DNA from: Chloroflexota bacterium
GTDB taxonomy: Bacteria > Chloroflexota > Limnocylindria > Limnocylindrales > CSP1-4
Length of the DNA: 64,000 bases
Assembly: GCA_040007635.1 (NCBI GenBank)
Contig: JBDTUR010000001.1
Span: 9,205-73,204 of the forward strand
Direction of reading: 5' to 3'
The notes under the pieces were generated by a model that did not search any database, had not been told where the DNA came from, and was given only the letters and a program-made list of their open reading frames with translations. This document shows, one piece after another, positions 17,746-32,766 of this stretch. Numbering within the stretch: the stretch's first letter is position 1; every line of letters begins with the position of its first letter. A program made the position numbers and the translations under genes.

Positions 17746-18080
17746 CAGTCGCCGCCTCGCTCGCCGCGATCGCCGCGATCGCCACGCTCGCCGTCACCTT
17801 GGCTGCGGGGCCGGCTGACTGTCGGCGCCGGCGTGGTGTTGTGGCGCGGCTTGTTGACGTGAACCACTGCCGGCTGCGGCGTGGGCTCGACGTAAACCTT
17901 GTCGATGACCGTCTTGGTCGTGTCAGGCGCTGCGGCCGCAGTCTGGTCACTGGCGGGTGTTGCGGCTGAGGTGTGAGCTGCCGTCGGCGCGGCAGAGAAG
18001 AGCCCACCCAGGTTCATTGCCAGGGCAAGGACGGCTGCCGCGCCGACACCACCGAGAAAGATTGCGAGCCGGTGAACCAT
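17745..18080 (-). CDS. Small signal-anchored protein with a collagen-like GDR/GER acidic tail, module A copy 2 (paralog of 18934-19422)
   Basis: Starts MVHRLAIFLGGVGAAAVLALA and has a GGAGG RBS 10 nt upstream of the ATG at 18080. The longer listed ORF (to 18155) has no RBS. Confidence 0.5.
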   Translation of the reverse strand: MVHRLAIFLGGVGAAAVLALAMNLGGLFSAAPTAAHTSAATPASDQTAAAAPDTTKTVIDKVYVEPTPQPAVVHVNKPRHNTTPAPTVSRPRSQGDGERGDRGDRGERGGD

Positions 18081-18208
18081 TTGCTTCGAGCCTCCGTTGT
18101 GCTTATCTGCTTCGGAGTCTGTCAGCGCGTTCTGTGGCCTCCATTTGCGACGCATTGGAGTTCGCTCACGCGGCGCAAGGCAGGCCCAGGGAGGACCCCG
18201 GGCAGGCC

Positions 18209-18934
18209 TTAGGGATGACCCGATTGACGCGTGGTGGGCTTGGGCGTGGGGCGAGGTGTGGGGCGCGGAGTCGCGGCTGGGCCCTGGGTGGGCCGGGGCG
18301 TGGTACTCACGCCACCGCCATTACCGCCGCCGCCATTTCCGCCGCCAGCGTTGCCGCCACCGCTGTGGGGCCGCGGCGTTGCCGTTGGGTCGGGGTTCGA
18401 TTGGTGGTTGCGCACGATGCGCGGCGGTGGCGCGCTCGCTGATATGACTGTCGCCCCGGGCGGTGCCGTCTGGCCGGGCTTGAGATAGACGTAGCGGATC
18501 ACGTGACGCACCTTGCCGCCGCGCCCACCCCCGCTGGTGCCGGTGGCATCGGGTTGGGCAGCGTCGGTGCCATCAGGCAGGAGCGCGATCGCACCCGGAT
18601 CGTCTGTTGGGTTGAAGCTTTCATCGGTTGGGCCCGGATCGGCGGTCGAGGTCCAGTCGGGTTGCACGAGGCCCACGGCCATGATGCTCATTGCCGCAAC
18701 CGCGCCTGCGCCGTAGACCACGCGCATTGGCCGTGGATCGGGCCGATTGGCGGGACGGCGTGCGGGCCCCCCAGCGCTGCCGGCGGTGGCCGGACGATGC
18801 TCGATCCCCGCGCGTGGCCGCGAGGCGCGCGGGACGTCAGCCGCGACCGCCTCCGCCTCTTCGCCGCGCCGTGGCGGCAGCGGCCGGCCAGACGTCGCCG
18901 ATCTTCGCCCGGAATCAGGCTCTTGAGCGGCCAT
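18209..18934 (-). CDS. Pro/Ala/Gly-rich single-pass membrane protein, module B copy 1
   Basis: About 45% identity over the core with 17161-17745 (MRVVYGAGAVAAMSIMAVGLVQPDW; YVYLKPGQTAPPGATVISASAPPPRIV). Confidence 0.55.
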   Translation of the reverse strand: MAAQEPDSGRRSATSGRPLPPRRGEEAEAVAADVPRASRPRAGIEHRPATAGSAGGPARRPANRPDPRPMRVVYGAGAVAAMSIMAVGLVQPDWTSTADPGPTDESFNPTDDPGAIALLPDGTDAAQPDATGTSGGGRGGKVRHVIRYVYLKPGQTAPPGATVISASAPPPRIVRNHQSNPDPTATPRPHSGGGNAGGGNGGGGNGGGVSTTPRPTQGPAATPRPTPRPTPKPTTRQSGHP

Positions 18935-19422
18935 CAGTCGTCGCCCGGCTCATGGCCGCCATCGTCGGACCCGCCATCGTGGGACCCGCCGTCGTGGGAC
19001 CCGCCGTCGTCCGAGTGCTCGCCGCCATCATGCTCGTCCTCGCCCCCGGCCTGGCCGTCATCACCGCCCACGTTGCCACCGCCGCCGTTGCGCGTCGGGC
19101 GGGGCGTGTCACTGGGCTGGTTGCCTTTGTCGCCTGCGGGCTTGTCGGTACGCACGACCACCGGCTTGCTCGGCGGCAGGACATAGATCGTGTCGACCTT
19201 CTTGACGGACGGCGCGGCCTGGTCCGTGCCCAGATCGGTCACCAGGGCCAGGGGATCAGTGGGCGCAACCTGCGCCAGCTGATCGGCGCCGGTTACATCA
19301 TTCGCGACAGGCACGAACGCGTCTGGAGTGGTTGGCGGCGCTGACCCATTCAGTGTCAGCGCCAGGGCGAGAACACCGGCCGCGCCGGCGCCGCCCATCA
19401 GCAATGCAAGTCGGTGAACCAC
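18934..19422 (-). CDS. Small signal-anchored protein with a Gly/Asp/His-rich tail (DGGSHDGGSHDGG), module A copy 1
   Basis: GTG start with a GGAGGAG RBS. N-terminus MVHRLALLMGGAGAAGVLALA and motif KKVDTIYVLPPSKPVVVRTDKP are shared with copy 2. Its TGA stop shares one nucleotide with the ATG of the next gene (TGATG). Confidence 0.55.
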   Translation of the reverse strand: MVHRLALLMGGAGAAGVLALALTLNGSAPPTTPDAFVPVANDVTGADQLAQVAPTDPLALVTDLGTDQAAPSVKKVDTIYVLPPSKPVVVRTDKPAGDKGNQPSDTPRPTRNGGGGNVGGDDGQAGGEDEHDGGEHSDDGGSHDGGSHDGGSDDGGHEPGDD

Positions 19423-19496
19423 GGCTGCTCCTCCTCTTGAAAGATCACGGCTGAGGCGCAGTCTGGGCGGCCCGTCTGTGGCGAGTTTTAGGTGAG

Positions 19497-19527
19497 CATT
19501 TGAATTCCCAAAGGAAGGCCATTTGAA
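19497..19527. promoter_or_regulatory. Direct repeat CATTTGAA (19497-19504 and 19520-19527) in the lower-GC divergent promoter region between the A/B operon and the response-regulator gene. Candidate OmpR-family binding site.
   Basis: Two exact 8-mers 23 bp apart centre to centre. Confidence 0.3.
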
Positions 19528-19556
19528 CCTTGCGCAGCGCGGCTGGCGATGCCTAT

Positions 19557-20243
19557 ATGGAAGCCATGAAGCGAGTCCTGCTCGTCGAAGACCAAGAGCG
19601 CATGGCCGACGCCGTGCGGCGCGTGCTCGTGGCTGAGCGCTACACGGTTGACGTCGCCGCCGACGGCGAGACCGCGCTCGAACTGAGCCGGCAGCACAGC
19701 TACGACGTCGTGCTGCTGGATCGAATGCTGCCGGGGATCAGCGGCGAGCAGGTGCTGCGCACCATGCGCCGGCGCGGCAACTCGACGCCCGTGCTCATGG
19801 TCACGGCCCTTTCCGCACTCGACCACCGCGTCGAGGGACTGGACGCCGGCGCCGACGACTATTTGCCCAAGCCCTTCGCGTTCAGCGAGCTGCTCGCACG
19901 CCTGCGCGCCCTCACCCGTCGCAGCCCAGAACTCGTGGCCGAGCGGCTTGCGGCGGGCACGATCGAGCTCGATCCAGATCGCCACCAGGTGACAGTGGGC
20001 GAGCGGAGCGAGCTGCTGTCGGCGCGCGAATACGCACTGCTGGGCTATCTCATACGCCACGCCGGCCAGGTGGTGACGCGCCAGCAGATCCTCGACTCGG
20101 TCTGGGGCGCGGAGCCTGACGTGTATTCGAACGTCGTCGACCTGTACATCCATTACCTGCGGCGCAAGCTGGGCGCGCTGGGCCAGAACAAGGCGTTACG
20201 CACCGTGCGCGGAGTCGGTTATGCGCTTCAACCGGGCGGCTAA
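19557..20243 (+). CDS. OmpR-family two-component response regulator
   Basis: Receiver domain (VLLVEDQ...D...LLDRMLPG...PVLMVTA...K) plus a winged-helix trans_reg_C domain (GYALQ terminus). Confidence 0.9.
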   Translation: MEAMKRVLLVEDQERMADAVRRVLVAERYTVDVAADGETALELSRQHSYDVVLLDRMLPGISGEQVLRTMRRRGNSTPVLMVTALSALDHRVEGLDAGADDYLPKPFAFSELLARLRALTRRSPELVAERLAAGTIELDPDRHQVTVGERSELLSAREYALLGYLIRHAGQVVTRQQILDSVWGAEPDVYSNVVDLYIHYLRRKLGALGQNKALRTVRGVGYALQPGG

Positions 20244-21750
20244 ACCACTCGTTACGGCGGTGACGCCATCGGACCGCCTGGTCCGACGAACATCGCGCGG
20301 CCTGGCCTTCGTCACGCTCGCATTGATCGCCGCTCTGCTGGCCGGGGTGGGCCTGGTCACGGCGGCGGTCGCGATTGGCATGACCAACGAGAACATCGAC
20401 CGCACGTTGGAGCAAGCCGCTTCCGTCCGACTGGGCGAGATCGAGACACTGCTCCAGCAGGAGACCGACCAAGAGGGACAACCGAGTCAGACGTCCAGTC
20501 CCGAAAACGAAAACGGATCTGAAGATGGCGCGACCTCCCAAGAAGGCGAAGGCGTACCGGGCGCGACGTCGGAAGTGACGCCGGTGCCCACCCCTGCCCC
20601 GACGGCCACACCCATGCCGTCCGGCCTTGGTCTGGTTGATAGCGACGAAGCGCAGCTCGAATCCTTCCAGACCTTCTACCTGGTGCTCGACACCAACGGC
20701 AACGTGCTCTCCAATCCGCAGCAGATCAGGCTCGCCGGACTGCCCGACGCCGCCGCGGCGGAAGCAGCAAGGCGCGGTGACGATCTGCGCACGGTGACCG
20801 TGGGCGGCATCCATATCCGCCTGCTCACCCGGCGCGTCATGAACACGAGGAGCGAGGTTGTCGCTCTGCTCCAGACCGGGTTCCTGCTGACGCAGCACGA
20901 CCAGCAAACGAACACGATCCTGATCACGATCGCACTGGTCAGCCTGATCGGACTGCTGGGTGCCGCGGTGGTGACGCTGGTGGTCACGACGCGCGCCATG
21001 GGACCAATTCGCTCAGCCTTCAATGCTGAGCGACGCTTCGTCGCGTCGGCGTCGCACGAGCTACGGACACCCGTCGCCGTCGTCCGCGCATCGGCCGAAA
21101 TACTGCAGCGCGAAGGCCTGGTACAGCCCGACGGCCAACGCCTCGTCGCGGACATCGTGTCCGAATCTGACCGGCTGGGGCGGCTGGTGGGCGACCTGCT
21201 GGCGCTCGCATCCGCCGATGCCGGCGCAATCGTGGTGAAACCAGAGGAGATCGAGATGCGCGGCTTCGTCGCCGAACTGGCGCGGCGCGCGGAGGCGATC
21301 GCGACCGAGCGCGGTGTCAAGCTGGAGCTCGTCCAGGAGCGCGCGTCCGGGGCCGATCGCGCTCTCCTCGTGCGCGCCGATCCCGACCGCATGACCCAGC
21401 TGTTGCTGATCTTCATCGACAACGCGATCGACCACTCCCCGGCCGGCGGCACGATCCGCCTGTCTGTGGCGCCACTCAACGAGGGTCGCCAGCCGCAGAT
21501 CTGCGTGGGCGTCGCGGACCAGGGGCCGGGCGTGCCAATGCACGAGCGACTGCGCATCTTCGAGCCATTCGCGCGCCTCGCCGGCCGGCGCCGCGAGACG
21601 GGCAATACCGGCCTGGGCCTGGCCATCGCCCGCGTCCTCGCCGCGCGTCAGGACGCGACGCTCCACGTTGACGACGCCACCGGCGGCGGCGCGGTGTTCA
21701 GTGTCTGGCTGCCGCGCCGGAGCGCTACCGGAGCCGCGGCCAACAACTGA
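20221..21750 (+). CDS. Sensor histidine kinase (two TM segments, periplasmic sensor with an acidic Pro/Thr low-complexity insert, HisKA + HATPase_c)
   Basis: H-box SASHELRTPVAVV, N/G boxes, C-terminal GGAVFSVWLP. Overlaps the regulator gene by 23 nt. Confidence 0.9.
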   Translation: MRFNRAAKPLVTAVTPSDRLVRRTSRGLAFVTLALIAALLAGVGLVTAAVAIGMTNENIDRTLEQAASVRLGEIETLLQQETDQEGQPSQTSSPENENGSEDGATSQEGEGVPGATSEVTPVPTPAPTATPMPSGLGLVDSDEAQLESFQTFYLVLDTNGNVLSNPQQIRLAGLPDAAAAEAARRGDDLRTVTVGGIHIRLLTRRVMNTRSEVVALLQTGFLLTQHDQQTNTILITIALVSLIGLLGAAVVTLVVTTRAMGPIRSAFNAERRFVASASHELRTPVAVVRASAEILQREGLVQPDGQRLVADIVSESDRLGRLVGDLLALASADAGAIVVKPEEIEMRGFVAELARRAEAIATERGVKLELVQERASGADRALLVRADPDRMTQLLLIFIDNAIDHSPAGGTIRLSVAPLNEGRQPQICVGVADQGPGVPMHERLRIFEPFARLAGRRRETGNTGLGLAIARVLAARQDATLHVDDATGGGAVFSVWLPRRSATGAAANN

Positions 21751-21799
21751 TCGGGCGTGGGCCGTGCGTACTCAGCGGCGTTTGTAACAATGCTGATCA

Positions 21800-22972
21800 A
21801 TGAACGCTGCGATGAATGCCACCCTGCGCGTGTCGGCCAAGGCCGAACGCTTCACTGAATCGGTCATCCGCGACATGACCCGGCTCGCGCTCCAGCACGG
21901 CGCGGTCAACCTCGCTCAGGGCTTCCCGGACTTCGCCTGTCCGCAGGAGTTGAAGGACGCGGCCGCCGCGGCGATCCAGGGGGACATCAATCAATATGCG
22001 ATCACATGGGGAGCGCGCGATTTTCGCGAGGCGATCTGCGCCAAGACTGAGCGGTTCTACCCCGGTTGGAAGGTTGACCCACAGACCGACTTGACGGTCA
22101 CCTGCGGCGCGACTGAGGGCATGATCGCGGCCATGCTGGCGCTGCTCGACCCGGGCGACGAAATCGTCGTGTTTGAGCCCTTCTACGAGAACTACGGGCC
22201 CGACGCGATCCTGTCAGGCGCCGTACCCAGGTACGTGACGCTGCACGAACCCGACTGGCACATCGACGAGGCTGAGCTGCGCGCAGCGTTCGGTCCGCGC
22301 ACCCGGGGCATCGTGCTCAATTCGCCGCATAACCCAACCGGCAAGGTCTTCACGCGGCCTGAGCTCGAGCTGATCGCCGGGCTCTGCGTCGAGCACGACG
22401 CGCTGGTCTTCACGGACGACATCTACGAGCACATCATCTACGCTGGGACCCACATCCCAATGGCGACGCTGCCCGGGATGGCCGTGCGCACCGTGGCCAT
22501 CAACTCGCTCTCCAAGACGTACTCGGTCACCGGCTGGCGCGTCGGCTGGGTGATCGCACCTGCACCGTTGACGAGTGCGATTCGCAAGGTGCACGACTTC
22601 CTTACGGTTGGCGCCGCGGCACCGCTGCAGGCCGCTGGCGCCGTGGCGCTGAACCTGCCTGACTCGTACTACCAATCGCTCGCGGCCGGCTACCTGGAGC
22701 GGCGCGACACGCTTATGAGCGCCTTGGACGGCGCCGGCTTCCGGACATACGTGCCCAACGGCGCGTACTACGTGATGACCGACATCAGAGGCCTGACCGA
22801 ACAGGACGATGTCACCTTCGCCAAGGCGATGACGGCGAGCCCCGGCGTGGCCACCGTCCCGGGCTCGTCGTTCTACTCGCGACCGGAGCTCGGACGCACC
22901 AAGGTTCGCTTTGCCTTCCCCAAGAAGCATGAAACGCTCGTTGCAGCCGCGGAACGCCTGGCGGCTTTGTAG
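21800..22972 (+). CDS. PLP-dependent class I/II aminotransferase (AspAT/kynurenine-AT-like)
   Basis: NLAQGFPDF, SLSKTYSVTGWRVGW (PLP-Lys region); 390 aa. Confidence 0.85.
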   Translation: MNAAMNATLRVSAKAERFTESVIRDMTRLALQHGAVNLAQGFPDFACPQELKDAAAAAIQGDINQYAITWGARDFREAICAKTERFYPGWKVDPQTDLTVTCGATEGMIAAMLALLDPGDEIVVFEPFYENYGPDAILSGAVPRYVTLHEPDWHIDEAELRAAFGPRTRGIVLNSPHNPTGKVFTRPELELIAGLCVEHDALVFTDDIYEHIIYAGTHIPMATLPGMAVRTVAINSLSKTYSVTGWRVGWVIAPAPLTSAIRKVHDFLTVGAAAPLQAAGAVALNLPDSYYQSLAAGYLERRDTLMSALDGAGFRTYVPNGAYYVMTDIRGLTEQDDVTFAKAMTASPGVATVPGSSFYSRPELGRTKVRFAFPKKHETLVAAAERLAAL

Positions 22973-23319
22973 CGCGGGGCCCGGCCAAACGGCCTGAATG
23001 TAGTGTGCTCCTGAAAGGTCCCTTAAGTACTATTCGACGGCGCACCAACGCCACTGATGCAATAATCCTGTGGCGCAATCGCGCACCATCGAAGAGGAAA
23101 ATCGAACAAGCTCGCCGCCCCAGCGGCAGCAGTCGTCAGCTCAACGGCCATTTTTCGGCCCGTTGCTGAACCTCTTGAGTCCCACCCCGCCGTGCGGGTC
23201 TCGGACGTGTGTCTCTTGGCCGCTTAATCGCGCCTGACTGCTGTTAACCGGACGGCCCAATTGCCGGACTCCGCGTGTAATGCCGAGTCGCGCCTAGGCC
23301 GGCTACCGAGGAGGCAGCA

Positions 23320-24015
23320 GTGCCATCTGCCAATCCGGCTGTGGGGGTAAAGCCGATCATCAGCGCGTCCGCCGTCCATCGGCGTGTACGCAACACGTTC
23401 CTGGCTGCGGGCCTGAGCCTGGGGCTCTTGCTACCGGCTGGGTTGTTCGTGGCGACCGGAGTCGCCGCGCACGTCCCGTCTGGTGGCGGGAACGATTGCA
23501 GTCGCTGGACCAGCACCACCCAGCCGCCTGACTACATCCGCGTCTATCGCAACAAGACGGGCCGGATCGAACGAGTGCCGTTCCGCAAGTACGTGGTAAC
23601 CGTCCTGGGCCGCGAGTGGCCGGGATACCTACCGCATGCCCTCATCGCCGCGGGAGCCGTGGCGGCAAAGCAGTACGCGTGGTATCACGCGCTGAGCCCA
23701 CGTCACATGCGCGACGGTCGCTGCTTCGATGTCCGTGACGGCATCCAGGATCAGCTCTACCGGCCCGCCAGCGCCCGCGTCCGCCAGGACCACTTCGATG
23801 CGGTCGCTCTGACTTGGGGTGTAACGCTGAGTAAGAGTGGCCGCTTCTTCATGACGGGCTACCGCGCAGGCCACAAGGGTCGCTGCGGCAGCGACGCAAA
23901 CGGCTGGAAGCTATTCGCCCGTACGGGCACGCGCTGCGCGTACGGCGGCAAGGACTTCATGCAAATCCTGCGCATCTATTACGGGCCCGACCTGGGCATT
24001 CACCGCCGCCGCTAA
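23320..24015 (+). CDS. SpoIID/LytB-domain-like secreted protein
   Basis: N-terminal TM/signal; C-terminal ...RCAYGGKDFMQILRIYYGP resembles the conserved SpoIID/LytB terminus. GTG start with a GGAGG RBS. Confidence 0.45.
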   Translation: MPSANPAVGVKPIISASAVHRRVRNTFLAAGLSLGLLLPAGLFVATGVAAHVPSGGGNDCSRWTSTTQPPDYIRVYRNKTGRIERVPFRKYVVTVLGREWPGYLPHALIAAGAVAAKQYAWYHALSPRHMRDGRCFDVRDGIQDQLYRPASARVRQDHFDAVALTWGVTLSKSGRFFMTGYRAGHKGRCGSDANGWKLFARTGTRCAYGGKDFMQILRIYYGPDLGIHRRR

Positions 24016-24136
24016 CTCCGGCCAACCCGACGCGGCAGACATCTCGTCTGCCGCGTCTTTTCATATGGAATTCGCTCTCCTCGGTGTACCCGCTGGGACC
24101 TGAAAATACCGACCTGCGTCACATCGAGGTGAGGGA

Positions 24137-24864
24137 ATGGCCCGTATCGTCCGCGGCGCTCTGATCCAGGCAACCTGGACGGGCGACAAGGAATCGATGA
24201 TCCAGAAGCACGAGCAGTACGCCCACCAGGCGGCCAAGGACGGCGCCCAGGTGATGCTGTTCCAGGAGCTCTTCCACGGGCCCTACTTCTGCCAGGTCCA
24301 GGATCCGCAGTACTACTCGTACACGGAGCTGATCCCCGACGGGCCAATCACCACTCTGCCGTCGATGCAAACTGGGGTGTGACCCTCCGCAAGCACGACG
24401 AGTTCTTCATGACCGGCTACCGACGCGGTAGCAGGGCCCGCTGCGGCGCCGATTCAACCGGTTACAAGCTCTTCGCCCTGAGCGCCAAGCGCTGCGCCAA
24501 CAAGGGCTACAACTTCCGCGAGATCCTGCGCGTCTACTACGGCCCGGGCCTCCAGCTGGTCGAGGGCAGTTCGGCCGGGTCGTCGACTTCTGCCGCACAG
24601 GCGCCCAGCGCGCAGTCGCCGGCGGCGGAGCCGTTGACACAGCAAGCGACGACGCCGGCCGTCGACCCGCAACCAGCTCAGCAGGCGCCTGGCGAGCCGC
24701 GCATGTTCGCCTTCCCACCGGCAGATCGCCCAGCGCGCGCCGGCGCCACAAGCGTGTTGGTGGCGCGCGCTCCAGGGCGGTCGCGCAAAACCACGAGACT
24801 CGGCGCCGCGTTCAGCGTCTGGCTGCCTCGGCGTCCAGGGGACGAGGCGCCGGCGAGCGCTTGA
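24137..24864 (+). pseudogene. Mosaic gene remnant made of three fragments, frame-shifted between the first two. Fragment 1 is the 5' 70 codons of the nitrilase gene (about 97% nt identity to 28743-28903). Fragment 2 is a diverged copy of the SpoIID-like C-terminal domain. Fragment 3 is a histidine-kinase C-terminus-like segment (VLVAR...AAFSVWLPRR).
   Basis: My own nucleotide comparison of 24194-24354 vs 28743-28903 (5 mismatches in about 160 nt). Protein similarity of 24379-24560 to 23830-24000. HATPase_c-like ending at 24750-24840 resembling 21660-21720. Confidence 0.55.
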
Positions 24865-27067
24865 CCGGCCGGGTCGCGGGAGCGCCGGCTTCGAGGCGCT
24901 CGATCAGGCCATCGGCGCCCATCGCCGCGAAGAGCGCCTGGGCCTCTGCGCGCCCATCGGCCGCGTCCTTGTCCCGGTCGCCCAGCAACCGCGCACGTTC
25001 CAGCAGCGTCAGCGCCAGGTCGAAGCGCAGGTCGGCCGCGCGCCAATCGTCGATCACACGCCGGTAGAGGCGGGCCGATTCGTCGAAGCTGCCGTCGAGC
25101 GCCAATGCGCCGGCGTCTATCGCGCGGCGCGACTTGTCGACCCAGTTGGCGGCCGCCGCATTGTGGAGGAACCAATCGCGATCCTGGTTTACCGCATCGG
25201 CATCGCCCATCAGCAACGCAACGTGTGCGGCGAGCACAGTGGCAATGCCTCCCGCGCGGGGGTATGCCTCGGCTGACTGGACGGCCAGCCGCCGGGCGTC
25301 GGCCAGCCGGCCTTCGGCCAGGGCAATGCACGCATGAATGTAGTGCAGCGTGGCGGCGTCCTGCGCCGAGCTCGAGCTGGCGACCTGGCTCTCGAGGGGC
25401 GCCATCCGCTCGCGTGCGCCGGCGCGATCGCCGCGCAAGGCCAGGACGATGGCCGCGTGACCGCGCACGAAAGCGCCGAGGGAGCCGGAGCCCTCGATCG
25501 CACCGGCCTCGAGCCGCACGACCTCGTCCAGGTCACCGATCAGCTGCGCGGCGTGGGCGGCGTTGCCGGCCATGCTCCCGCGAGCAATGCCGTACTGGCG
25601 GCTGATGGCAATGCCCGCTTGGGCAATCTCGAGCGACTGGTACGGATCCTCGATGATCAGGTAGCCGCTGAGGTTGAAGCGAGCACGCAATCGTGAGAAC
25701 AGCTCATCCTCCTGATCGGCCATGTGCATCGCGCCGGTCAGCAACGCGACTGCCTCACGGAATCGACCAAGCATGTTGAGCGCCCAGGACTTGGTGATGA
25801 TCAGCTGCAGCGTCGGCCCGCGAATCTGGAGCCGCTCGGCGGTCTCAAGAGCATGCGCCACAGCTGTCGCCGCAGGTTCGCCTTCGCCGCGAAACAGGTG
25901 CCCGCGCGCAAGTTGACCGTTGAGGGCAATACCGGCCCGGCTCTCTTCCGACGGCAGGCTGGCCAAAGCCGCGCCGAGCATGGTCATTGCCTCGTCGATG
26001 CGTGAAATCTCGAGCAGCCATGAGCCCAGCTGCGCCGTGATCTCGCCGGCCTGATCGAGGTCGCTGCGCTGCTCCTGCCATGCCTTGGCCGCGGCCAGGT
26101 TGGCCAGCGCCACCTCGACGTTGCCGGCATTCCAGGCGGCTTGACCGGCCCGGACACGGAGGTCGTTCAGATCCTGCTCCTCGAAGGTGACCGCCATGGC
26201 CTGCTCGTAGTAGGTCAGCGCCTGGTCGTGCGAATGAAGCCGCACGGCGCGGTCGGCAGCGGCCCGCAGGGCAACGCGCGCCTGGGCGGCAACCGCCGCC
26301 CCTTCCTCTCCCTCCGGTGCGGCCTGGAACGCCTCCAGGTAGTGACTGGCCAGCATGCCGGCCAACTCGTCGTCGCCCAGCGTGTCGAAATAGCGCGCGG
26401 CCGCCAGGTGGCGGCTGCGCCGCTCACGCTTGGACAGCATGGCGTATGCGATCTCGCGAATGAGGCCCTGCTTGAAGTGGTGCTGACCTCGCTCCGGTGA
26501 GCGCGGATCAGACTCCAACGCGAGGAGCTCCTTGTGCGCCAGGGCGCGCAGCCGGGGCTCGACTTCCTGGGCCGACTTGCCCGTCAGGGCGGCCAACGCG
26601 GTGATCGGGAAGACCTGACCCAGCACGGCCGCGTCCTGGAGAAGAGCGCGGTCGTCGGCGTCGAGCGCGTCGAGGCGCGAGGAAATGAGCGCCCTCAGGG
26701 TTGGTGGCACATCGAGCGCGGGCAGGTCGCCGTGCAGCTCGTAGACGTCGCCCTGCCGTACGAGGTGGCCGCCGTCGGCCAGGGCGCGGACCATCTCGAC
26801 CGCATACAGCGGCACACCCGCGGCGCGCTCGATGATGCGCGCCAGGTCCTCCTGGGCAAGTGCCGGCACAAGTCCGCGGAGCATCTCGCCCATGGCATCC
26901 TCAGCCAGCGGCTCGAGGTGAAGGGCAACCAGCGCGCGGCGGCCCATGCCGAAGTTCGGCCGGCGCTCGAGCAGTTCCGGCCGGGCGAGAGTCACGATCA
27001 GGATCGGCTGGTCGCGCGTCCATTCGAGCAGGTGCTCGATGAAGTCGAGCATCCGTTGTCGGCCCAC
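24812..27067 (-). CDS. C-terminal part (AAA ATPase remainder + TPR-like repeats) of a frameshifted adenylate cyclase-ATPase gene
   Basis: Begins ...LDFIEHLLEWTRDQPILIVTLARPELLERR, the expected continuation of the upstream ORF's FEDLQWAD. Long alpha-helical repeat region. Confidence 0.7.
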   Translation of the reverse strand: MGRQRMLDFIEHLLEWTRDQPILIVTLARPELLERRPNFGMGRRALVALHLEPLAEDAMGEMLRGLVPALAQEDLARIIERAAGVPLYAVEMVRALADGGHLVRQGDVYELHGDLPALDVPPTLRALISSRLDALDADDRALLQDAAVLGQVFPITALAALTGKSAQEVEPRLRALAHKELLALESDPRSPERGQHHFKQGLIREIAYAMLSKRERRSRHLAAARYFDTLGDDELAGMLASHYLEAFQAAPEGEEGAAVAAQARVALRAAADRAVRLHSHDQALTYYEQAMAVTFEEQDLNDLRVRAGQAAWNAGNVEVALANLAAAKAWQEQRSDLDQAGEITAQLGSWLLEISRIDEAMTMLGAALASLPSEESRAGIALNGQLARGHLFRGEGEPAATAVAHALETAERLQIRGPTLQLIITKSWALNMLGRFREAVALLTGAMHMADQEDELFSRLRARFNLSGYLIIEDPYQSLEIAQAGIAISRQYGIARGSMAGNAAHAAQLIGDLDEVVRLEAGAIEGSGSLGAFVRGHAAIVLALRGDRAGARERMAPLESQVASSSSAQDAATLHYIHACIALAEGRLADARRLAVQSAEAYPRAGGIATVLAAHVALLMGDADAVNQDRDWFLHNAAAANWVDKSRRAIDAGALALDGSFDESARLYRRVIDDWRAADLRFDLALTLLERARLLGDRDKDAADGRAEAQALFAAMGADGLIERLEAGAPATRPVKRSPAPRPLDAEAARR

Positions 27068-28374
27068 TGAAGGTCCTCGAAGGCAAGCACCGTCGGGCCC
27101 TTGTCGGCGATGCGTTCGAAGAACGTTCGCCAGGCACTGAACAACTGCTCGCGCGCACCCCAGTCGGCCTCGTCGATGCCGAGCAGGACGCCCAGGGCCG
27201 GCTCCAGCCAGCGCCGCTCCTGCGCATCGGGGACGAAGTCGTCCAGCGTCTTGCGCAGCTTTTCGCGGGTCGAGGCCTCGTCTTCGCCCTCGGTGATGTG
27301 GGCCCGGCGGCGGACCATCTCGCCCAGTGCCCAGAAACTGACTCCCTCGCCGTAGGACGGCGAGCGACCCTGGTGCCAGTAGTAGAGCTCGGGGCCGGCC
27401 AGCCCGTCGAGGTACTTCTCCAACTCCCAGATCAGGCGGCTCTTGCCCATGCCCGCCTGGCCCGTGATCGCGACCATGCGCAGCTTGTGCTCACGCTCGG
27501 CGGCATGGAGCTGGTCCTTCAGCAGGTGCAGCTCCTCGTCGCGGCCGACAAACGGCGGCTCCAGACCTTCCTCGCGCCCCGCACCGCCTACGCGGGCAAC
27601 GACGCGCAGCGCGCGCCAGGCGGCAACCGGCGCCTGCTTGCCCTTGAGCAGCTGCTCACCCGCCGGTTCGTAGGCGATCGCCGCTCTGGTCGCCTGTTGG
27701 GTCGTTTCACCGACCAGCACCACGCCCGGCGGAGCGATCGACTGGAGCCGCGACGCGGTGTTGACCAGGTCGCCTGCAACCATCCCCTCGCCGGTCAGGC
27801 CGACAGTCACGGCCGCCTCGCCCGAGTGGACGGCGGCGCGCAACTCGATCGGTGCGCCGCTCAGGCGCAGCTCCCGGACTCGGCTGACCAGCTCCAGCGC
27901 GGCGCGCACGGCACGCTCGGCGTCGTCCTCGTGGGCGAGCGGAGCGCCCCAGACCGCCATCACCGCATCGCCGATGAACTTCTCGATCGTGCCGGCGTAG
28001 CCCGCGATCACCTCGCGCGCAACGTTGAAGTACTCCGACAGCAGCTCGCGCACCTGCTCCGGATCGTGTTGTTCGGACAGGGTCGTGAAGCCGACCAGGT
28101 CGGCGAACAGGACCGACACGTAGCGCCGCTCGGCGGCCGGGCCGGCGGGTGTCGCGGCCGCGGTCGGCCGGCGGCCGGCGTCGCCGCCAGCTGCTGCCGT
28201 TGCGGACGCGGCTGTGGGCGCTGAGGCAAAGGCAAAACCGCACTCCGCGCAGAACTTGGGGCTACCCTCGTAGGGCGTCGCGCAGTTGGGGCAGTTCACG
28301 GCCAGGCCAAGTCCGCACTCGGCGCAGAACTTCGCGCCGGCGAGCGTTGCGGAGCCGCAGCGAGGACAGGCCAA
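26998..28374 (-). CDS. N-terminal part of the same gene: double zinc ribbon + class III adenylate/guanylate cyclase + P-loop NTPase start
   Basis: CPRCGS..CAECG..CPNCAT..CAECG zinc ribbons; cyclase catalytic region VSVLFADLVGFT...FIGDAVMAVWG; Walker A GQAGMGKS. The frame breaks near 27045-27065. Confidence 0.75.
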   Translation of the reverse strand: MACPRCGSATLAGAKFCAECGLGLAVNCPNCATPYEGSPKFCAECGFAFASAPTAASATAAAGGDAGRRPTAAATPAGPAAERRYVSVLFADLVGFTTLSEQHDPEQVRELLSEYFNVAREVIAGYAGTIEKFIGDAVMAVWGAPLAHEDDAERAVRAALELVSRVRELRLSGAPIELRAAVHSGEAAVTVGLTGEGMVAGDLVNTASRLQSIAPPGVVLVGETTQQATRAAIAYEPAGEQLLKGKQAPVAAWRALRVVARVGGAGREEGLEPPFVGRDEELHLLKDQLHAAEREHKLRMVAITGQAGMGKSRLIWELEKYLDGLAGPELYYWHQGRSPSYGEGVSFWALGEMVRRRAHITEGEDEASTREKLRKTLDDFVPDAQERRWLEPALGVLLGIDEADWGAREQLFSAWRTFFERIADKGPTVLAFEDLQWADNGCSTSSSTCSNGRATSRS

Positions 28375-28685
28375 TTCTCACTCCAAGTGACGGGACTCAA
28401 CGGTCAGCGTACTACTCCACCCGCGCACGACCGCGTCGGTGATACGCCCTGCCAAGCAACTTCTCGCCTCCGGGACGCTAGCCCGTCGACCACGCTACCG
28501 AGACTGACGCAGGCGGGGCCTGCCCAGCCGGCAGCGCCTCAGCCAGGTGCTCCGCGGGCGATAGATTGCCCCACTGGTCGATCGCTGGGCCGCCAGTACC
28601 CCGTTAGACGCGGTGCTACATCAAGCGCCCGTTGTACGCTGTGAGCGCACTACCCAGTCATCCCCCAGTTGCCGAGGTAACTCAG

Positions 28686-29537
28686 ATGGCCCGAAACGTT
28701 CGTGGCGCGCTGCTCCAGGCGGAGTGGACCGGCGACAAAGAGTCGATGATCCAGAAGCACGAGCAGTACGCCCACCAGGCGGCCAAAGATGGCGCGCAGG
28801 TGATGCTGTTCCAGGAGCTCTTCTACGGGCCCTACTTCTGCCAGGTCCAGGATCCGCAGTACTACTCGTACACGGAGCTGATCCCCGACGGGCCGACCAC
28901 CAAGCGCATGCAGGACCTGGCCAAGCAGACGGGCATGGTCCTCATTGTCCCGATGTATGAAGAGGACGAGCACGCGGCGGGCATCTACTACAACACCGCC
29001 GCGGTGATCGACGCCGACGGCAAGTACCTGGGCAAGTACCGCAAGACCCACATCCCGCACGTCAAGGGCTTCTGGGAGAAGTTCTACTTCCGTCCCGGCA
29101 ACCTGGGCTATCCGGTGTTCGAGACCGCTGTCGGCCGAGTCGGTGTCTACATCTGCTACGACCGACACTTCCCGGAGGGCGCCCGCGCGCTGGGGCTCAA
29201 CGGCGCAGAGATGGTGTTCATCCCCTCGGCCACCTCGCGCGGCCTGTCGGAATACCTGTGGCGCGTCGAGCAGGTCTCACACGCCCTGGCGAACGGCTAC
29301 TTCGTGGGCACGATCAACCGTGTCGGCATCGAAAAGGAATTGGGCGACGACGACTTCTACGGCCAGTCGTACTTCGTCGATCCGCGCGGCCAGTTCATCG
29401 GTGATGTGGGTGATCCGCACAACGAGGAGCTGCTCGTGCGCGACATGGACCTGGACATGATCCACGAGGTCCGTAACACCTGGCAGTTCTACCGCGATCG
29501 CCGGCCGGACGCATACGGCGACCTAGTCCGACCCTAA
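28686..29537 (+). CDS. Nitrilase-superfamily carbon-nitrogen hydrolase, beta-ureidopropionase / N-carbamoyl-amidohydrolase-like
   Basis: Catalytic triad context (E in FQELF, K in YRKTH, C in VYICYD). ATG at 28686 (MARNVRGALLQ); the listed ORF start at 28632 is an upstream extension. Confidence 0.85.
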   Translation: MARNVRGALLQAEWTGDKESMIQKHEQYAHQAAKDGAQVMLFQELFYGPYFCQVQDPQYYSYTELIPDGPTTKRMQDLAKQTGMVLIVPMYEEDEHAAGIYYNTAAVIDADGKYLGKYRKTHIPHVKGFWEKFYFRPGNLGYPVFETAVGRVGVYICYDRHFPEGARALGLNGAEMVFIPSATSRGLSEYLWRVEQVSHALANGYFVGTINRVGIEKELGDDDFYGQSYFVDPRGQFIGDVGDPHNEELLVRDMDLDMIHEVRNTWQFYRDRRPDAYGDLVRP

Positions 29538-29560
29538 ACCGCCCCAGCACGATCATCGCC

Positions 29561-29941
29561 ATGAACCTGACCCGGGTCAGCCTCTACTACGTCGTCGCTT
29601 ATCTGGCGGTCGCCGGCCTGTCGCTGCTGCTCGTTCCGAACTTTGCGCTGAACCTGCTGCTCTCGAATGACGCCGATGCCTACGGCGACGTGTTCCCGCG
29701 CTTCGTCGGCATGACCCTGATCGGCCTCGACATCCTGGTCTTCCAGATCGTCCGGCTGCGCCTCGAGCAGCTCTACCAGACCACGTTGTTGGTTCGGATC
29801 TTCTTCCTCGCGGTGTTGGCCGCGCTGTTCGTGCGGAGTCACGACCCGTTCTTCCTGGTCGTGGTCGCGATCATCGCGGTCGGAGTGGCGATGACGGGTT
29901 ACGCGTATATGCGGGAGCGGCGCGGGGGAGTTGGCGGCTGA
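29561..29941 (+). CDS. Small integral membrane protein (about 4 TM), hypothetical
   Basis: Hydrophobic helices; the opposite-strand ORF 29534-29965 is D/E/R-rich and looks spurious. Confidence 0.45.
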   Translation: MNLTRVSLYYVVAYLAVAGLSLLLVPNFALNLLLSNDADAYGDVFPRFVGMTLIGLDILVFQIVRLRLEQLYQTTLLVRIFFLAVLAALFVRSHDPFFLVVVAIIAVGVAMTGYAYMRERRGGVGG

Positions 29942-30128
29942 TCGGCAAAACTTGCGGCCGTGCATACCTGATTTCTACTTCAAATGGAGACCTCCACGGG
30001 CCTGGTTCGGACGGGGCAGCGGCAGACGGCCAAGCCAGGCTCTCAACACCCGAATCGCCGTACCGATCTGCCCACTGGCGGCCGATTACGCCCGATAAGC
30101 CGACGTAGACCGCGGACGAAGGGCATGT

Positions 30129-30998
30129 GTGTCTACTTCAATTGGAATGTCGCCACGCAAGTTCACAGTCGCACCCTCTTCGACCATTGAGGATGCCGTC
30201 CGGCGGCTATGGATCTCGATGGGCATTCGGATCCGCGATGCCCGCCTTGGCCGCAAGTGGTCCGTGCCAGAGCTCGCTCGGCGGGCAGGGATTTCTCGCG
30301 CCGCCACATATCTGATCGAAGCCGGTCAGCCGACTTCGGTAGAGGCAGTCACGCGTGTCGCGAGCGCACTCGGCTTGCGCTTGGATTTCGAGCTAACCGA
30401 CACCCGCCGGCGCGCCGAGCCAAGCCCCTCGCTGACGGCGGACGTGGTTCACTCGGCGATGGGCGAATTGGAGGCAAGCCACTTCAGGAGCGTGGGGCTG
30501 CCTGTGGGTATCGACGAGCCCTATCAGCACTACCAGTTCGCCGGCCGAGCGGACGTGGTCGCGTGGGATCTCGACAAGGCGGCCCTGCTTCACCTCGAGA
30601 ACCGAACGCGTTTCCCAAACGTCCAGGAGTCGATCGGCACATTCAACGCGAAGCGCGCCTACCTCGGTGATGCACTGGCGACGCGGCTGGGTGTGCGTCG
30701 CTGGCGCAGCGAAACCCACGTCATGGTCGGCGCCTGGACGGCCGAAGTCCTGCACGCACTGCGCCTGCGCGCGGAGACCTTTCGATCCGTCTGTCCCGAT
30801 CCGCCAACTGCGTTCGAGGGCTGGTGGCACGGCACTCCACCGGAGAACGCCAGGGTCTCGATTTTGGTCGTCTTGGACCCGCTGGCGGGTCGGCGTCAGC
30901 GACCCTTCATCGGGCTCGATGAGGCGATCGCCACGGCCCGGCCGCGCTACCGCGGTTATGCCGATGCCGCGCATGTCCTGGTGCGGGGGCACGGCTAA
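30129..30998 (+). CDS. XRE-family HTH protein with an uncharacterised C-terminal domain
   Basis: HTH IRDARLGRKWSVPELARRAGISRAATYLIEAGQ; C-terminal region with ...RADVVAWDLDKAALLHLENRTR. Confidence 0.55.
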   Translation: MSTSIGMSPRKFTVAPSSTIEDAVRRLWISMGIRIRDARLGRKWSVPELARRAGISRAATYLIEAGQPTSVEAVTRVASALGLRLDFELTDTRRRAEPSPSLTADVVHSAMGELEASHFRSVGLPVGIDEPYQHYQFAGRADVVAWDLDKAALLHLENRTRFPNVQESIGTFNAKRAYLGDALATRLGVRRWRSETHVMVGAWTAEVLHALRLRAETFRSVCPDPPTAFEGWWHGTPPENARVSILVVLDPLAGRRQRPFIGLDEAIATARPRYRGYADAAHVLVRGHG

Positions 30999-31007
30999 CA
31001 TCGCCGC

Positions 31008-32198
31008 ATGGCCGTGACCTCTATTCGCCGTGTTGATCGTCTGCGCAACTCCATCGCGCCGTTCCTGGGCTTCTTCACGGGTCCCTACGCGACGCTCGAG
31101 AAGGATCCCGACGTCGCCAACTTCGCCGTTGGCAATCCCCAGGAGTTGGCGATGCCGGCCTACGTCAGGGCCGTGCGCGACCAACTCGAGCCGCGCCACA
31201 AGGACTGGTTCGCTTACAAGCTGTCCGAGCCAAACGCGCAGCGTGTCGTGGCCAACTCCATGTCAAAGCTGACCGGCCTCGAGTGGGACCCAGCCGACGT
31301 GAACATGACCAACGGCGGTTTCGCCGCCATCGCGGTGGCGCTGCGCACCCTGCTCGAGCCCGCTGACGAGGCGATCTTCCTCTCGCCGCCGTGGTTCTTC
31401 TACGAGCAGCTCATCCTCGCGGCCGACGGCGTGCCGGTCCGCGTCCGTTTCGATATGCCCGAGTGCAAGCTGGACCTGGCACGCATCGAGGCGGCCATCA
31501 CGCCGAGCACGCGGGTCGTGCTGCTCAACTCGCCGCACAATCCGAGCGGCCGAGTGGTGCCACTCGATGAGCTGAGGGGCCTCGCAGACATGCTGGCCAG
31601 CGCCTCGCGCCGGATCGGCCACGACATTTACCTGCTGAGCGACGAGCCCTACCGGCGGATCGTCTTCGATGGCCGCGAATACCACTCACCGGCCGAGGTC
31701 TACCCGGCCACCGTGGTCACCTATTCGTATGGCAAGCAGCTGCTGGCGCCGGGCATGCGCATTGGCTACCTGACGTGGCCCCCAACAATGCCCGATCGCG
31801 ACCGTCTGCGCGAGGACACATTCGTGCAGCAGCTGGGCGCCGGATTCTCCTTCCCGAACGCCGACCTGCAGCATGCCGTCGAACATCTCGAGCCGCTATG
31901 CATCGACATCCGGGCGCTTGAGCGACGCCGCGCGCGTCTCGTGGGCAAGCTGCGTGGCATGGGCTACCAGGCCACCTGGCCCGAGGGCACGTTCTACGTG
32001 ATGGCGACCTCGCCGCTGCCTGACGACGAGGCGTTCGCGCGGATCCTCAATAGCCACAAGGTGCTGGTCCTGCCGGGCACGATCGTGGAGACGCCCGGCT
32101 GGTTCCGCATCAGCCTCACGGCCTCTGATGAGATGGTCGAGCGCGGCATCCCCGGCTTTGCCGCAGCTTTCGAGGAAGCGCGACGCACCACGGCTTGA
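31008..32198 (+). CDS. PLP-dependent class I/II aminotransferase
   Basis: LNSPHNPSG, TYSYGKQLLAPGMRIGY (Lys region); 396 aa. Confidence 0.85.
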   Translation: MAVTSIRRVDRLRNSIAPFLGFFTGPYATLEKDPDVANFAVGNPQELAMPAYVRAVRDQLEPRHKDWFAYKLSEPNAQRVVANSMSKLTGLEWDPADVNMTNGGFAAIAVALRTLLEPADEAIFLSPPWFFYEQLILAADGVPVRVRFDMPECKLDLARIEAAITPSTRVVLLNSPHNPSGRVVPLDELRGLADMLASASRRIGHDIYLLSDEPYRRIVFDGREYHSPAEVYPATVVTYSYGKQLLAPGMRIGYLTWPPTMPDRDRLREDTFVQQLGAGFSFPNADLQHAVEHLEPLCIDIRALERRRARLVGKLRGMGYQATWPEGTFYVMATSPLPDDEAFARILNSHKVLVLPGTIVETPGWFRISLTASDEMVERGIPGFAAAFEEARRTTA

Positions 32199-32199
32199 G

Positions 32200-32766
32200 C
32201 TAGACCAGCTGGCAGATAACCGTGACCGCGATCTGGGCGCCGTCGCGTGCGTCGGCTTCGAGGTCCAGCGTCGCGTCCAAATCCGACAGGTCCAGAAAGG
32301 CATTCCCGTCGCCTTCCCCGCTGCCCGGGTCGATGGTGTAGCTGACACCACCATTCGGGCCGCCCAGACTGATCTTCGCCTCGAAGTCATCACTCGCGTC
32401 GTCGATCGCCACAGCGGCATCGCGCAACACCAGGTCTAGCGCGACGAAGCCATCAGGCGCGGCGTTGCTGGCGTAGTTAACGCTGAACCTGTTCTGCTCG
32501 GGCTGGCTGCGACATGCGCCCGGTGCCACGGCGCGATACGAGCCGTCGTGCGGCCCGCCCGTGATGACGATCTCGATCTCAGCTGACGGACCCGTTGGCT
32601 GGGGTGCATCGTTCGCGGAAGGTTGGGTGCTGGTCGCGCTGGGTTGGGCACTGGTGGTCGGCCCACCGCTGTGGATCGGGCTGGGCGTGGCCTGCGGCGG
32701 AACGTAACCGCCGTTGCAGGCAACTGCGGCGATGGCCACGCCGATCAAGGTGAGGGGACGTTTCAT
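32200..32766 (-). CDS. Secreted lipoprotein, hypothetical
   Basis: MKRPLTLIGVAIAAVAC lipobox (Cys+1 then NGG) and a Pro/Ser/Thr linker. ATG at 32766; the longer listed ORF extends upstream without supporting signals. Confidence 0.55.
   Translation of the reverse strand: MKRPLTLIGVAIAAVACNGGYVPPQATPSPIHSGGPTTSAQPSATSTQPSANDAPQPTGPSAEIEIVITGGPHDGSYRAVAPGACRSQPEQNRFSVNYASNAAPDGFVALDLVLRDAAVAIDDASDDFEAKISLGGPNGGVSYTIDPGSGEGDGNAFLDLSDLDATLDLEADARDGAQIAVTVICQLV

Follow-up and report, generated by a model that had tools for sequence, protein, structure and literature searches.

We analysed a 64,000-nucleotide stretch of DNA (the window) from an uncultivated Chloroflexota bacterium of the Limnocylindrales (assembly GCA_040007635.1, contig JBDTUR010000001.1, positions 9,205 to 73,204). 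At 24016-24870 it carries pieces of three kinds of gene: the 5' end of a nitrilase-family gene, a 3' part of a SpoIID-like gene, and the end of a histidine kinase gene. We consider it likely that this scar region is the left-hand seam of a ~4.4-kb insertion (~24346/24354 to 28742) that came from a diverged version of the same locus. The case is carried by the anatomy of the region, the position of the nitrilase stub in the order of genes shared with relatives, the non-native character of the block, the microhomology at its left end and the chimeric structure of the intact nitrilase gene, all of which can be read from alignments. The mechanism, and whether the inner junctions of the block already existed in the donor, we infer.

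Anatomy of the scar region

The window, with a G+C content of 66% (65.7%), was compared with itself by blastn of 23900-25000 and by pairwise alignment, and open reading frames (ORFs) were scanned against Pfam (E ≤ 0.01). Related loci, given L numbers below, were obtained from scans of genome and metagenome collections and from gene-context look-ups; the closest relatives are Candidatus Limnocylindrales bins.

Along the forward strand the region opens with the native spacer between the SpoIID-like and nitrilase genes, including the original nitrilase upstream region (24016-24136), of which 24079/24085-24136 aligns with the spacers of L001, L006, L089 and L090. The spacer leads into the original 5' end of a nitrilase-family gene (24137-24353, nucleotides (nt) 1 to 209-217 of the gene), which is native in type throughout, is severed from the rest of the gene and matches only positions 3-64 of the 256 in the Pfam CN_hydrolase profile. 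In the self-comparison this stub aligns with 28686-28902, the start of the intact nitrilase gene, at 91% over 217 nt (E 5e-85). The identity is 44/57 (77%) over nt 1-57 and 154/160 (96.3%) over nt 58-217 (24194-24353 vs 28743-28902), and the two copies can scarcely be aligned 5' of the ATG.

An illegitimate junction with microhomology, at 24343-24357, joins the stub at nitrilase nt 209-217 to the 3' fragment of a diverged SpoIID-like gene of a long-tailed clade (24358-24672). This fragment includes part of a Pro/Ala/Ser-rich C-terminal tail and resembles L093, L088 and the protein P0162. Compared with the adjacent SpoIID-like gene, it shows 72% identity over 150 nt (24403-24551 vs 23845-23993, E 1.6e-15) and, over 24358-24552, 58.5% protein identity across 65 residues; it lies in a different frame from the nitrilase part. 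The stretch that follows (24673-24800) contains a second novel junction. It has weak gapped similarity to kinase 3' regions back to ~24766 or 24681, and could be either further SpoIID tail or decayed kinase 3' sequence. Last come the final 21 codons of a histidine kinase (24801-24864, ending ...GAAFSVWLPRRPGDEAPASA before the stop), joined to the 3' end of a regulator gene by a 53-nt convergent overlap. Within the window the kinase match is weak when taken alone (24801-24833 vs 21687-21719, 28/33 nt, E 4e-4, with the next chance matches at E 0.02-0.06); the kinase 3' ends of L088, L089 and L090 nevertheless show the homology to be real. The part reading VLVAR, 5' of 24800, has no significant similarity to anything.

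Two ORFs run through these pieces on the forward strand. ORF1 (24137-24382, 81 aa) consists of 72 nitrilase residues and nine out-of-frame residues, and its stop codon, TGA at 24380-24382, overlaps the GTG start of ORF2 (GTGA). ORF2 (24379-24864, 161 aa) passes through the SpoIID fragment, a Pro/Ala-rich stretch and the kinase tail, has no Pfam match, and is identical to the NCBI protein MEP7377956.1, annotated as hypothetical protein ABI725_00180 of a Chloroflexota metagenome-assembled genome and encoded on an 86-kb contig. Looking up the exact proteins of the nitrilase gene and ORF2 returned no recorded contig.

Much of the original prediction for this region is upheld by these comparisons. 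It had described a non-functional recombination scar made of nitrilase, SpoIID-like and histidine kinase pieces, and the ORFs hold a partial domain (ORF1) and no domain (ORF2). The predicted identities of about 97% for 24194-24354 and about 75% for the first 57 nt of the nitrilase piece agree with the 96.3% and 77% found, as does a SpoIID-like similarity of about 55% following a change of frame. The similarities stand above chance, that of the kinase tail once relatives are included. The predicted match to the kinase C-terminus survives for 24801-24864, homologous to the kinase ends of relatives, and fails for the VLVAR part. Illegitimate recombination at a recombinationally active locus, also predicted, accords with the microhomology of the left junction.

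Gene order in relatives and the native backbone

In L089 (GCA_039934395.1), whose backbone is ~91% identical in nucleotides to the window, and in L095, the genes run response regulator, kinase, regulator (on the opposite strand), aminotransferase, SpoIID and nitrilase. L088 has this order minus the aminotransferase and L090-L092 have it minus the regulator, while L001, L006 and L016, whose contigs start inside the SpoIID gene, show SpoIID followed by nitrilase. The SpoIID-like gene and the nitrilase gene are adjacent in L001, L006, L016, L088, L089, L090-L092 and L095. Comparison with orthologous loci, proposed originally as the way to the ancestral arrangement, did recover it as SpoIID followed by nitrilase, and at the same time changed the meaning of the fragments, which now appear as foreign alleles beside a native stub.

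Window 16826-21719, covering the upstream genes as far as the kinase, is 90.6% identical to L089 4-4905. Window 21800-24353, from the start of the aminotransferase gene through the SpoIID gene and the spacer into the nitrilase gene, is 90.8% identical to L089 8482-11009, in an unbroken alignment that ends exactly at nitrilase nt 217. The identity falls to 71.4% for the kinase tail and regulator (24801-28373 vs L089 4873-8419) and returns to 90.3% for the nitrilase gene and the sequence downstream of it (28686-29720 vs 10793-11829) and to 89.2% for a second aminotransferase gene (31021-32345 vs 16367-17691). Because 21800-24353 aligns with L089 without a break, the nitrilase stub, with its spacer, is the original 5' end of the gene in its ancestral place.

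In the window the native kinase gene lies directly 5' of the aminotransferase gene, as in the regulator-less L090-L092. Since this junction is collinear with that of L090, the backbone would have lost the regulator from its old site. At this usual site between kinase and aminotransferase the regulator is present in L089 and L095 and absent from L090-L092 and the window. Kinase-adjacent regulators from different lineages share only 66-72% identity, far less than the genes that flank them, indicating that the regulator evolves rapidly or is exchanged.

Diverged origin of the block

Parts of the block share 67-79% identity with their native or L089 counterparts, the backbone ~91% with L089. Over 195 nt (24358-24552) the SpoIID fragment is 80% identical to L093, ~75-76% to L088 and 67% to the adjacent gene, which is itself 91% identical to L089. 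In bootstrapping, the nearest neighbour of the fragment was L093 in 89.5% of replicates and never the adjacent gene or L089; at 41 sites it agrees with L093 and not with the neighbouring gene, vs 16 sites of the opposite kind (p = 0.001). Similarity to P0162 (61% of amino acids over 111 residues) extends into the Pro/Ala/Ser-rich tail to ~24672. Such tails range in the SpoIID-like family (window 23320-24015, L088 4510-5364, L093 3307-4494, P0123-P0242) from absent to ~160 residues. The tail-less proteins of the window and L089 have 231 aa vs 394-436 aa for the long-tailed ones, and the tails cannot be aligned between clades.

The regulator (24812-28374, minus strand) combines, by Pfam, zinc-ribbon, class III cyclase, AAA_16 and TPR domains and belongs to a diverged lineage. 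Its merged protein shares 66% of amino acids with the kinase-adjacent regulator of L089, 69% with that of L095 and 71% with that of L088, and falls outside the clade of L088 and L089. The gene encodes ~1186 aa and is split into two overlapping ORFs of 458 aa (26998-28374) and 751 aa (24812-27067) by a single frameshift at ~27052-27079 in the NTPase region, between ...QWADNG and MLDFIEHLL...; the halves are otherwise intact, and the C-terminal half is annotated by NCBI as a separate hypothetical protein. Because the frameshift is also found in the Logan contig L086, the regulator is probably a recent pseudogene. At its 5' end a 38-nt direct repeat (28225-28262 and 28300-28337, 79% identical, spaced by 75 nt) corresponds to the halves of a double zinc ribbon. 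Base composition was considered as a sign of foreign origin and set aside: the block has 69.5% G+C vs 65.7% in the window, but the regulators of all lineages have 69-71%, so that the difference is uninformative.

The kinase tail (24801-24864) is identical at 51/64 positions to L089, 49/64 to L090, 48/64 to L088 and 42/64 to the end of the window's own kinase gene. Its peptide, ending ...FSVWLPRRPGDEAPASA at the stop, resembles the ends ...FSVWLPRRPRTGAPASA of L089 and ...RRAPSEAPASS of L088, and not the ...RRSATGAAANN of the window kinase. The kinase and regulator genes overlap convergently by exactly 53 nt in L088 (9269-9321), L089 (4884-4936), L095 (11254-11306) and the window (24812-24864), and the kinase tail of the scar is the part that overlaps the last 17 codons of the regulator, plus a few more. 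The presence of a kinase tail in the scar is explained by this overlap, through which it travels with the 3' end of the regulator gene.

The 53-nt overlap occurs in every lineage that has both genes and is an unusually long conserved antiparallel coding overlap. The last nine codons of the window's own kinase gene (21720-21750) have drifted, to SATGAAANN vs PRTGAPASA in L089 (4906-4936). By its sequence, this drift is consistent with release from a double coding constraint after the loss of the regulator; L090 (8190-8220), which also has no regulator, retains the kinase end PRTDAPASV.

These affinities suggest that the block most likely came from another Limnocylindrales lineage and less likely from a paralogous locus in the same genome.

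A chimeric nitrilase gene

The intact nitrilase-family (CN_hydrolase) gene, at 28686-29537 on the forward strand, encodes 283 aa, matches Pfam at 2e-64, shares 94% of amino acids with L001 and is annotated as a nitrilase-related C-N hydrolase. Its first 57 nt (28686-28742) are of a foreign type. Over nt 1-57 the stub agrees with L089 and L090 at 56/57 positions (98%), against 45/57 (79%) for the intact copy, which is closer to L088 (52/57) and L007 (53/57; 91-93%) and has 51/57 in common with L094. At the diagnostic sites nt 28 and nt 36-39 the intact copy has the states of L088, L007 and L094. Over nt 58-217 (28743-28902 in the intact gene; repeat family D1) both copies are native in type, at 93-95% to L089 and L090 and ~87% to L088: the stub matches L089 at 149/160 and L090 at 150/160 positions, and the intact copy matches L089 at 151/160 and L088 at 140/160.

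The informative sites of the intact gene are donor-type at nt 9-39, possibly to nt 57, and native-type from nt 102 at the latest. The functional nitrilase gene is accordingly a chimera, with the crossover between nt 39 and 102. Nitrilase nt 58-217 was duplicated, not deleted, at the insertion site, and as this stretch is native-type in both copies, which are 96.3% alike, the event would be younger than the split from L089, which has no insertion. Nitrilase nt 140-209 recur exactly, as a 70-nt repeat, and across lineages the gene is conserved at 86-94%. Three changes are private to the stub, and two of these, Y47H and T71I, are non-synonymous and alter residues that are otherwise invariant.

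Upstream of the intact gene lies a new regulator-nitrilase spacer of 311 nt (28375-28685) with homology to L088 at both ends, 28375-28437 to the region upstream of the L088 regulator and 28625-28685 to that upstream of the L088 nitrilase gene.

It is in the source of the pieces that the original prediction does not hold. It had taken all three as fragments of neighbouring genes, left by segmental duplication or illegitimate recombination, yet the supposed parent gene is the closest sequence only for nitrilase nt 58-217. The nitrilase piece is not a copy at all, given its unbroken alignment with L089. The SpoIID piece is nearer to L093 than to the adjacent gene, and the kinase piece, nearer to L089 than to the upstream kinase, belongs to the 3' flank of the regulator. 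Gene-conversion-like exchange had been offered for the contrast of 75% and 97% identity; instead, the chimera is the intact gene, and the first 57 nt of the remnant are native. Nor is the scar merely next to a frameshifted regulator gene, since that gene, at 71.4% vs 91% for the backbone, is part of the inserted block.

Junctions of the block

At the left junction the nitrilase gene reads ...GGGCCGACCACCAAG, the SpoIID gene of L093 ...CGACCCGACCACCACCGT and the window ...GGGCCAATCACCACTCTGCCGTC. The microhomology comprises at least ACCAC, which is common to the window's own nitrilase and SpoIID genes, and up to CCGACCACCA (10 nt) if the donor was L093-like, with two substitutions. One inner junction, between SpoIID tail and kinase tail, lies somewhere in 24673-24800, and the other, between regulator upstream and nitrilase upstream sequence, within 187 nt at 28438-28624.

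No integrase or transposase was found among the ORFs scanned, and the block encodes only the regulator. The window contains no tRNA genes, and no inverted repeats beyond chance flank the block. Insertion of a mobile element was rejected on these grounds and because the duplication is 160-217 nt of coding sequence. A search for structured RNA in the spacers, run over 19000-32500, brought no Rfam family to its threshold.

Proposed event

The ancestral order would have been response regulator, kinase, regulator on the opposite strand, in some lineages an aminotransferase, SpoIID-like gene and nitrilase, from which the backbone would have lost the regulator, as in L090-L092. Into a backbone of L090 arrangement and L089 sequence type would then have entered a block from a diverged version of the locus, comprising the 3' end of a long-tailed SpoIID-like gene, a kinase tail, the regulator, the spacer and approximately the first 57 nt of a nitrilase gene. 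Its right end would have been formed by a homologous crossover inside the conserved nitrilase gene, at nt 39-102, and its left end by an illegitimate join to nitrilase nt 209-217 at 5-10 nt of microhomology. Nitrilase nt 58-217 are present twice because the illegitimate join lies downstream of the crossover. The native 5' end of the nitrilase gene and its spacer would thereby have been stranded as an 81-codon stub, and the working nitrilase gene would have gained a foreign start and upstream region.

Three routes are equally possible. Homology-facilitated illegitimate recombination could have bridged two sister chromosomes; microhomology-mediated template switching could have been followed by a homologous return; or, after a homologous replacement, a second recombination, one-ended, could have brought back the native SpoIID gene. 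The donor may already have had the order SpoIID fragment, kinase tail, regulator and nitrilase, or the block may have been stitched together during the event.

Several other schemes were tried and rejected. Had a circularised donor fragment been integrated by a Campbell-type single crossover, a reciprocal mosaic would be expected; there is none, the stub being native-type over its full length. Simple tandem duplication of the segment from the SpoIID 3' end through the spacer to nitrilase nt 1-217 fails, as both the SpoIID fragment and nt 1-57 of the intact nitrilase gene belong to other lineages. None of several variants of larger tandem duplication with reciprocal loss puts the SpoIID fragment between stub and kinase tail without extra events, and relocation of the genome's own regulator conflicts with its 71% identity to that of L089 vs 91% for the backbone.

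Some points weigh against the proposed insertion. The donor order of SpoIID, kinase tail, opposing regulator and nitrilase was not found, the best matches to parts of the block being 65-80% identical, and among the contexts of P0004, P0005, P0006, P0146, P0154, P0162 and P0236 none has a regulator between SpoIID and nitrilase. No homologue was identified for 28438-28624 (187 nt) or 24673-24800. Foreignness was judged within the window and related loci, and a paralogous source elsewhere in the genome is compatible with the data. Classical homology-facilitated illegitimate recombination deletes recipient DNA, so the 160 nt duplicated here need an extra assumption, while a single crossover with a circularised donor predicts a donor-type stub beyond the crossover, with ~21 differences expected vs the 6 seen. 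Finally, the contig L086, which reproduces part of the structure, may derive from the reads that also gave the genome bin.

Alternative explanations

The region could instead be an internal rearrangement of native DNA, in which the neighbouring genes underwent a tandem or segmental duplication and the genome's own regulator moved together with the kinase tail, after which the redundant pieces diverged for a long time while gene conversion kept nitrilase nt 58-217 alike; the original prediction is in essence this model. Tandem duplication from the SpoIID 3' end to nitrilase nt 217 would give the observed order of SpoIID, spacer and nitrilase 5' end followed by SpoIID 3' end and nitrilase; every piece has a counterpart within 4.5 kb, the regulator of relatives is only 1-4 kb away, and 217-nt direct repeats could have let relatives lose the structure again. 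We regard this as unlikely. Although the event must post-date the split from L089, the SpoIID fragment clusters with L093 and has only 67-72% identity to the adjacent gene, and the regulator shares 71% with its L089 counterpart. It is, moreover, in the functional copy that the divergent first 57 nt stand, with the states of L088, L007 and L094 and not random decay, and at least three more events would be needed (a move of the regulator, a deletion where it used to lie, and conversion of nt 58-217 only). Less probable still is an assembly chimera of two co-occurring populations, one with a plain SpoIID-nitrilase locus and one with the regulator beside the nitrilase gene, joined through the conserved nitrilase 5' region. 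The window does come from a metagenome-assembled genome, and the exact 70-nt repeat and the conservation of the gene invite graph joins. The Logan contig L086 (run SRR26386577) matches 24316-27985 at 100% identity and spans the nitrilase/SpoIID junction, the SpoIID-tail/kinase-tail region and the regulator frameshift, but begins 30 nt into the repeat, where a k=31 branch would put its start, so that the repeat is unresolved in the Logan assembly and the 160-nt duplication is not bridged. The left junction, however, shares only 5-10 nt, too few for a k-mer graph join, and is present in both assemblies; even with an assembly switch on the right-hand side it places native nitrilase against foreign SpoIID sequence on one molecule, and would still be a real mosaic. 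Both flanks are also equally close to L089 (90.3-90.8%), and a chimera across the conserved nitrilase region is unlikely.

As to function, an enzyme of the nitrilase superfamily has a complete alpha-beta-beta-alpha fold with a Glu-Lys-Cys catalytic triad. ORF1 is without the Lys- and Cys-bearing parts, because its PF00795 match stops at profile position 64. No PF08486, HisKA or HATPase_c domain was found in ORF2 in the Pfam scan; this ORF comprises no more than sequence C-terminal to the SpoIID domain plus the final 21 kinase codons. The two could still be a working gene pair that uses the native nitrilase promoter and GTGA translational coupling to produce either a new chimeric protein or a peptide with a regulatory role: neither the native upstream region nor the start codon is disrupted, the stop of ORF1 overlaps the start of ORF2, and ORF2 is open for 161 codons and is called as a gene by NCBI. 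This we hold to be highly improbable. The architecture of ORF2 was seen nowhere else among 5.8 billion clustered proteins, where its sole other match was an ordinary SpoIID-like protein aligned to the SpoIID part, and the exact protein of ORF1 is absent from a collection of 15 billion. ORF1 covers only positions 3-64 of its domain profile and ORF2 matches none, the stub has changed at otherwise invariant residues, and long accidental ORFs are common at 66-70% G+C. Judged by sequence, the stub, SpoIID fragment and kinase tail are taken to be inert leftovers and ORF2 an accidental open frame, no evidence of function having been found. Scarcely more probable than a working pair is early gene birth, in which the stranded nitrilase promoter and start would express ORF1 and, through GTGA, ORF2, the transcript running antisense into the regulator as regulatory read-through. 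If true, this would create a new chimeric protein made of a SpoIID C-terminal module, a Pro/Ala-rich linker and a kinase tail.

Neighbouring genes and variable sites

The insertion lies among genes identified by Pfam, all on the forward strand. A response regulator gene (~19530-20243) precedes the native histidine kinase gene (20221-21750), which encodes 509 aa with HisKA and HATPase_c domains and its own complete tail, and is 90.6% identical to L089 up to 21719. A class I/II aminotransferase gene (21800-22972) follows, and then the native SpoIID-like gene (23320-24015, 231 aa, PF08486), which shares 91% of amino acids with P0146 of L089. A terminator scan placed a terminator-like hairpin 3' of this gene, at 24029-24057. 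Downstream of the nitrilase gene is the second aminotransferase gene (31005-32180).

The interval between the nitrilase gene and this aminotransferase gene is a variable spot. In the window (29540-31020) it holds ~1.1-1.5 kb with an HTH_31/HTH_3 ORF (30129-30998), in L089 (11645-16366) a 1436-aa cyclase-nSTAND-WD40 gene, in L090 (11530-13000) a luciferase-like oxidoreductase, and in L001 (1475-1482) and L088 almost nothing. In L094, and probably L005, the order is SpoIID, PLP-dependent decarboxylase on the opposite strand, nitrilase; the decarboxylase (L094 4906-6348, L005 1706-1882) lies in the SpoIID-nitrilase spacer of the long-tailed SpoIID clade, convergent with SpoIID and divergent from nitrilase, the same geometry as that of the regulator in the window. 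The SpoIID-nitrilase spacer may be a recurrent landing site. In the metagenome contig L091 (6578-7425) gene calling splits the nitrilase gene into ORFs of 169 and 108 aa, probably through a frameshift or an assembly error, and the gene is intact at 283 aa in the near-identical L090 and L092.

Comparison with known systems

Homology-facilitated illegitimate recombination is known from Acinetobacter, Streptococcus pneumoniae, Pseudomonas stutzeri and from E. coli conjugation, and its documented products have homology at one end, 3-10 bp of microhomology at the other and, in many cases, a duplication of the homologous target (PMC3240628). The scar likewise has one homologous end, in the nitrilase gene, one illegitimate end, with 5-10 nt, and no mobile-element machinery. 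It differs in that the classical product has an insert of ~1 kb and a deletion of similar size, compared with an insert of ~4.4 kb and 160 nt duplicated here; there the event was observed experimentally, and here it is reconstructed from sequence. With E. coli fragments of one-ended homology, 56/60 Lac- clones gave a PCR product indicating lacZ duplication, and the 14 sequenced had duplications of 109-950 bp, explained by a circularised intermediate (PMC3240628). A direct duplication of part of the target gene flanks the insert in the window as well, and its 160-217 nt fall in the reported range, but the left copy is native-type over its whole length, and such a route is either inapplicable or calls for a later conversion.

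Orphan gene fragments left by successive displacement of modules are known from the Rhs and type VI secretion effector-immunity loci of Vibrio cholerae (PMC5361080). There, too, fragments beside an acquired module are foreign alleles by phylogeny, and recombination at conserved anchors has been proposed (PMC5361080). Those immunity genes are functional and selected, however, whereas the leftovers in the window are without sign of function, and what is orphaned there are 3' regions, as against the stranded 5' end of the target here.

Tandem duplication followed by random loss is a classical route to a change in gene order. In keeping with it, the regulator has switched sides of the SpoIID-like gene relative to L088, L089 and L095, and fragments mark the boundaries. 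The placement of the SpoIID fragment between stub and kinase tail and the 25-30% divergence of the supposed duplicates are unlike that process.

Implications

The scar is ordinary as biology, a recombination scar of a known general kind that lies at a new place and whose history is unusually easy to read. For annotation, ABI725_00180 (ORF2) is taken for an accidental ORF and the two regulator ORFs are the halves of one frameshifted gene, and the locus is a methodological warning that apparent copies of neighbouring genes can be foreign alleles. It offers a legible natural example of a ~3.6-kb gene moved between diverged versions of a locus without a mobile element, in uncultivated soil and freshwater Chloroflexota, by an event that can be dated relative to a sister genome. 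For the bacterium itself, the nitrilase gene has lost its native upstream region and now stands divergent to the regulator gene behind a 311-nt spacer, so its regulation probably differs from that in relatives, and the old nitrilase promoter region, if active, would read into the scar and antisense to the regulator.

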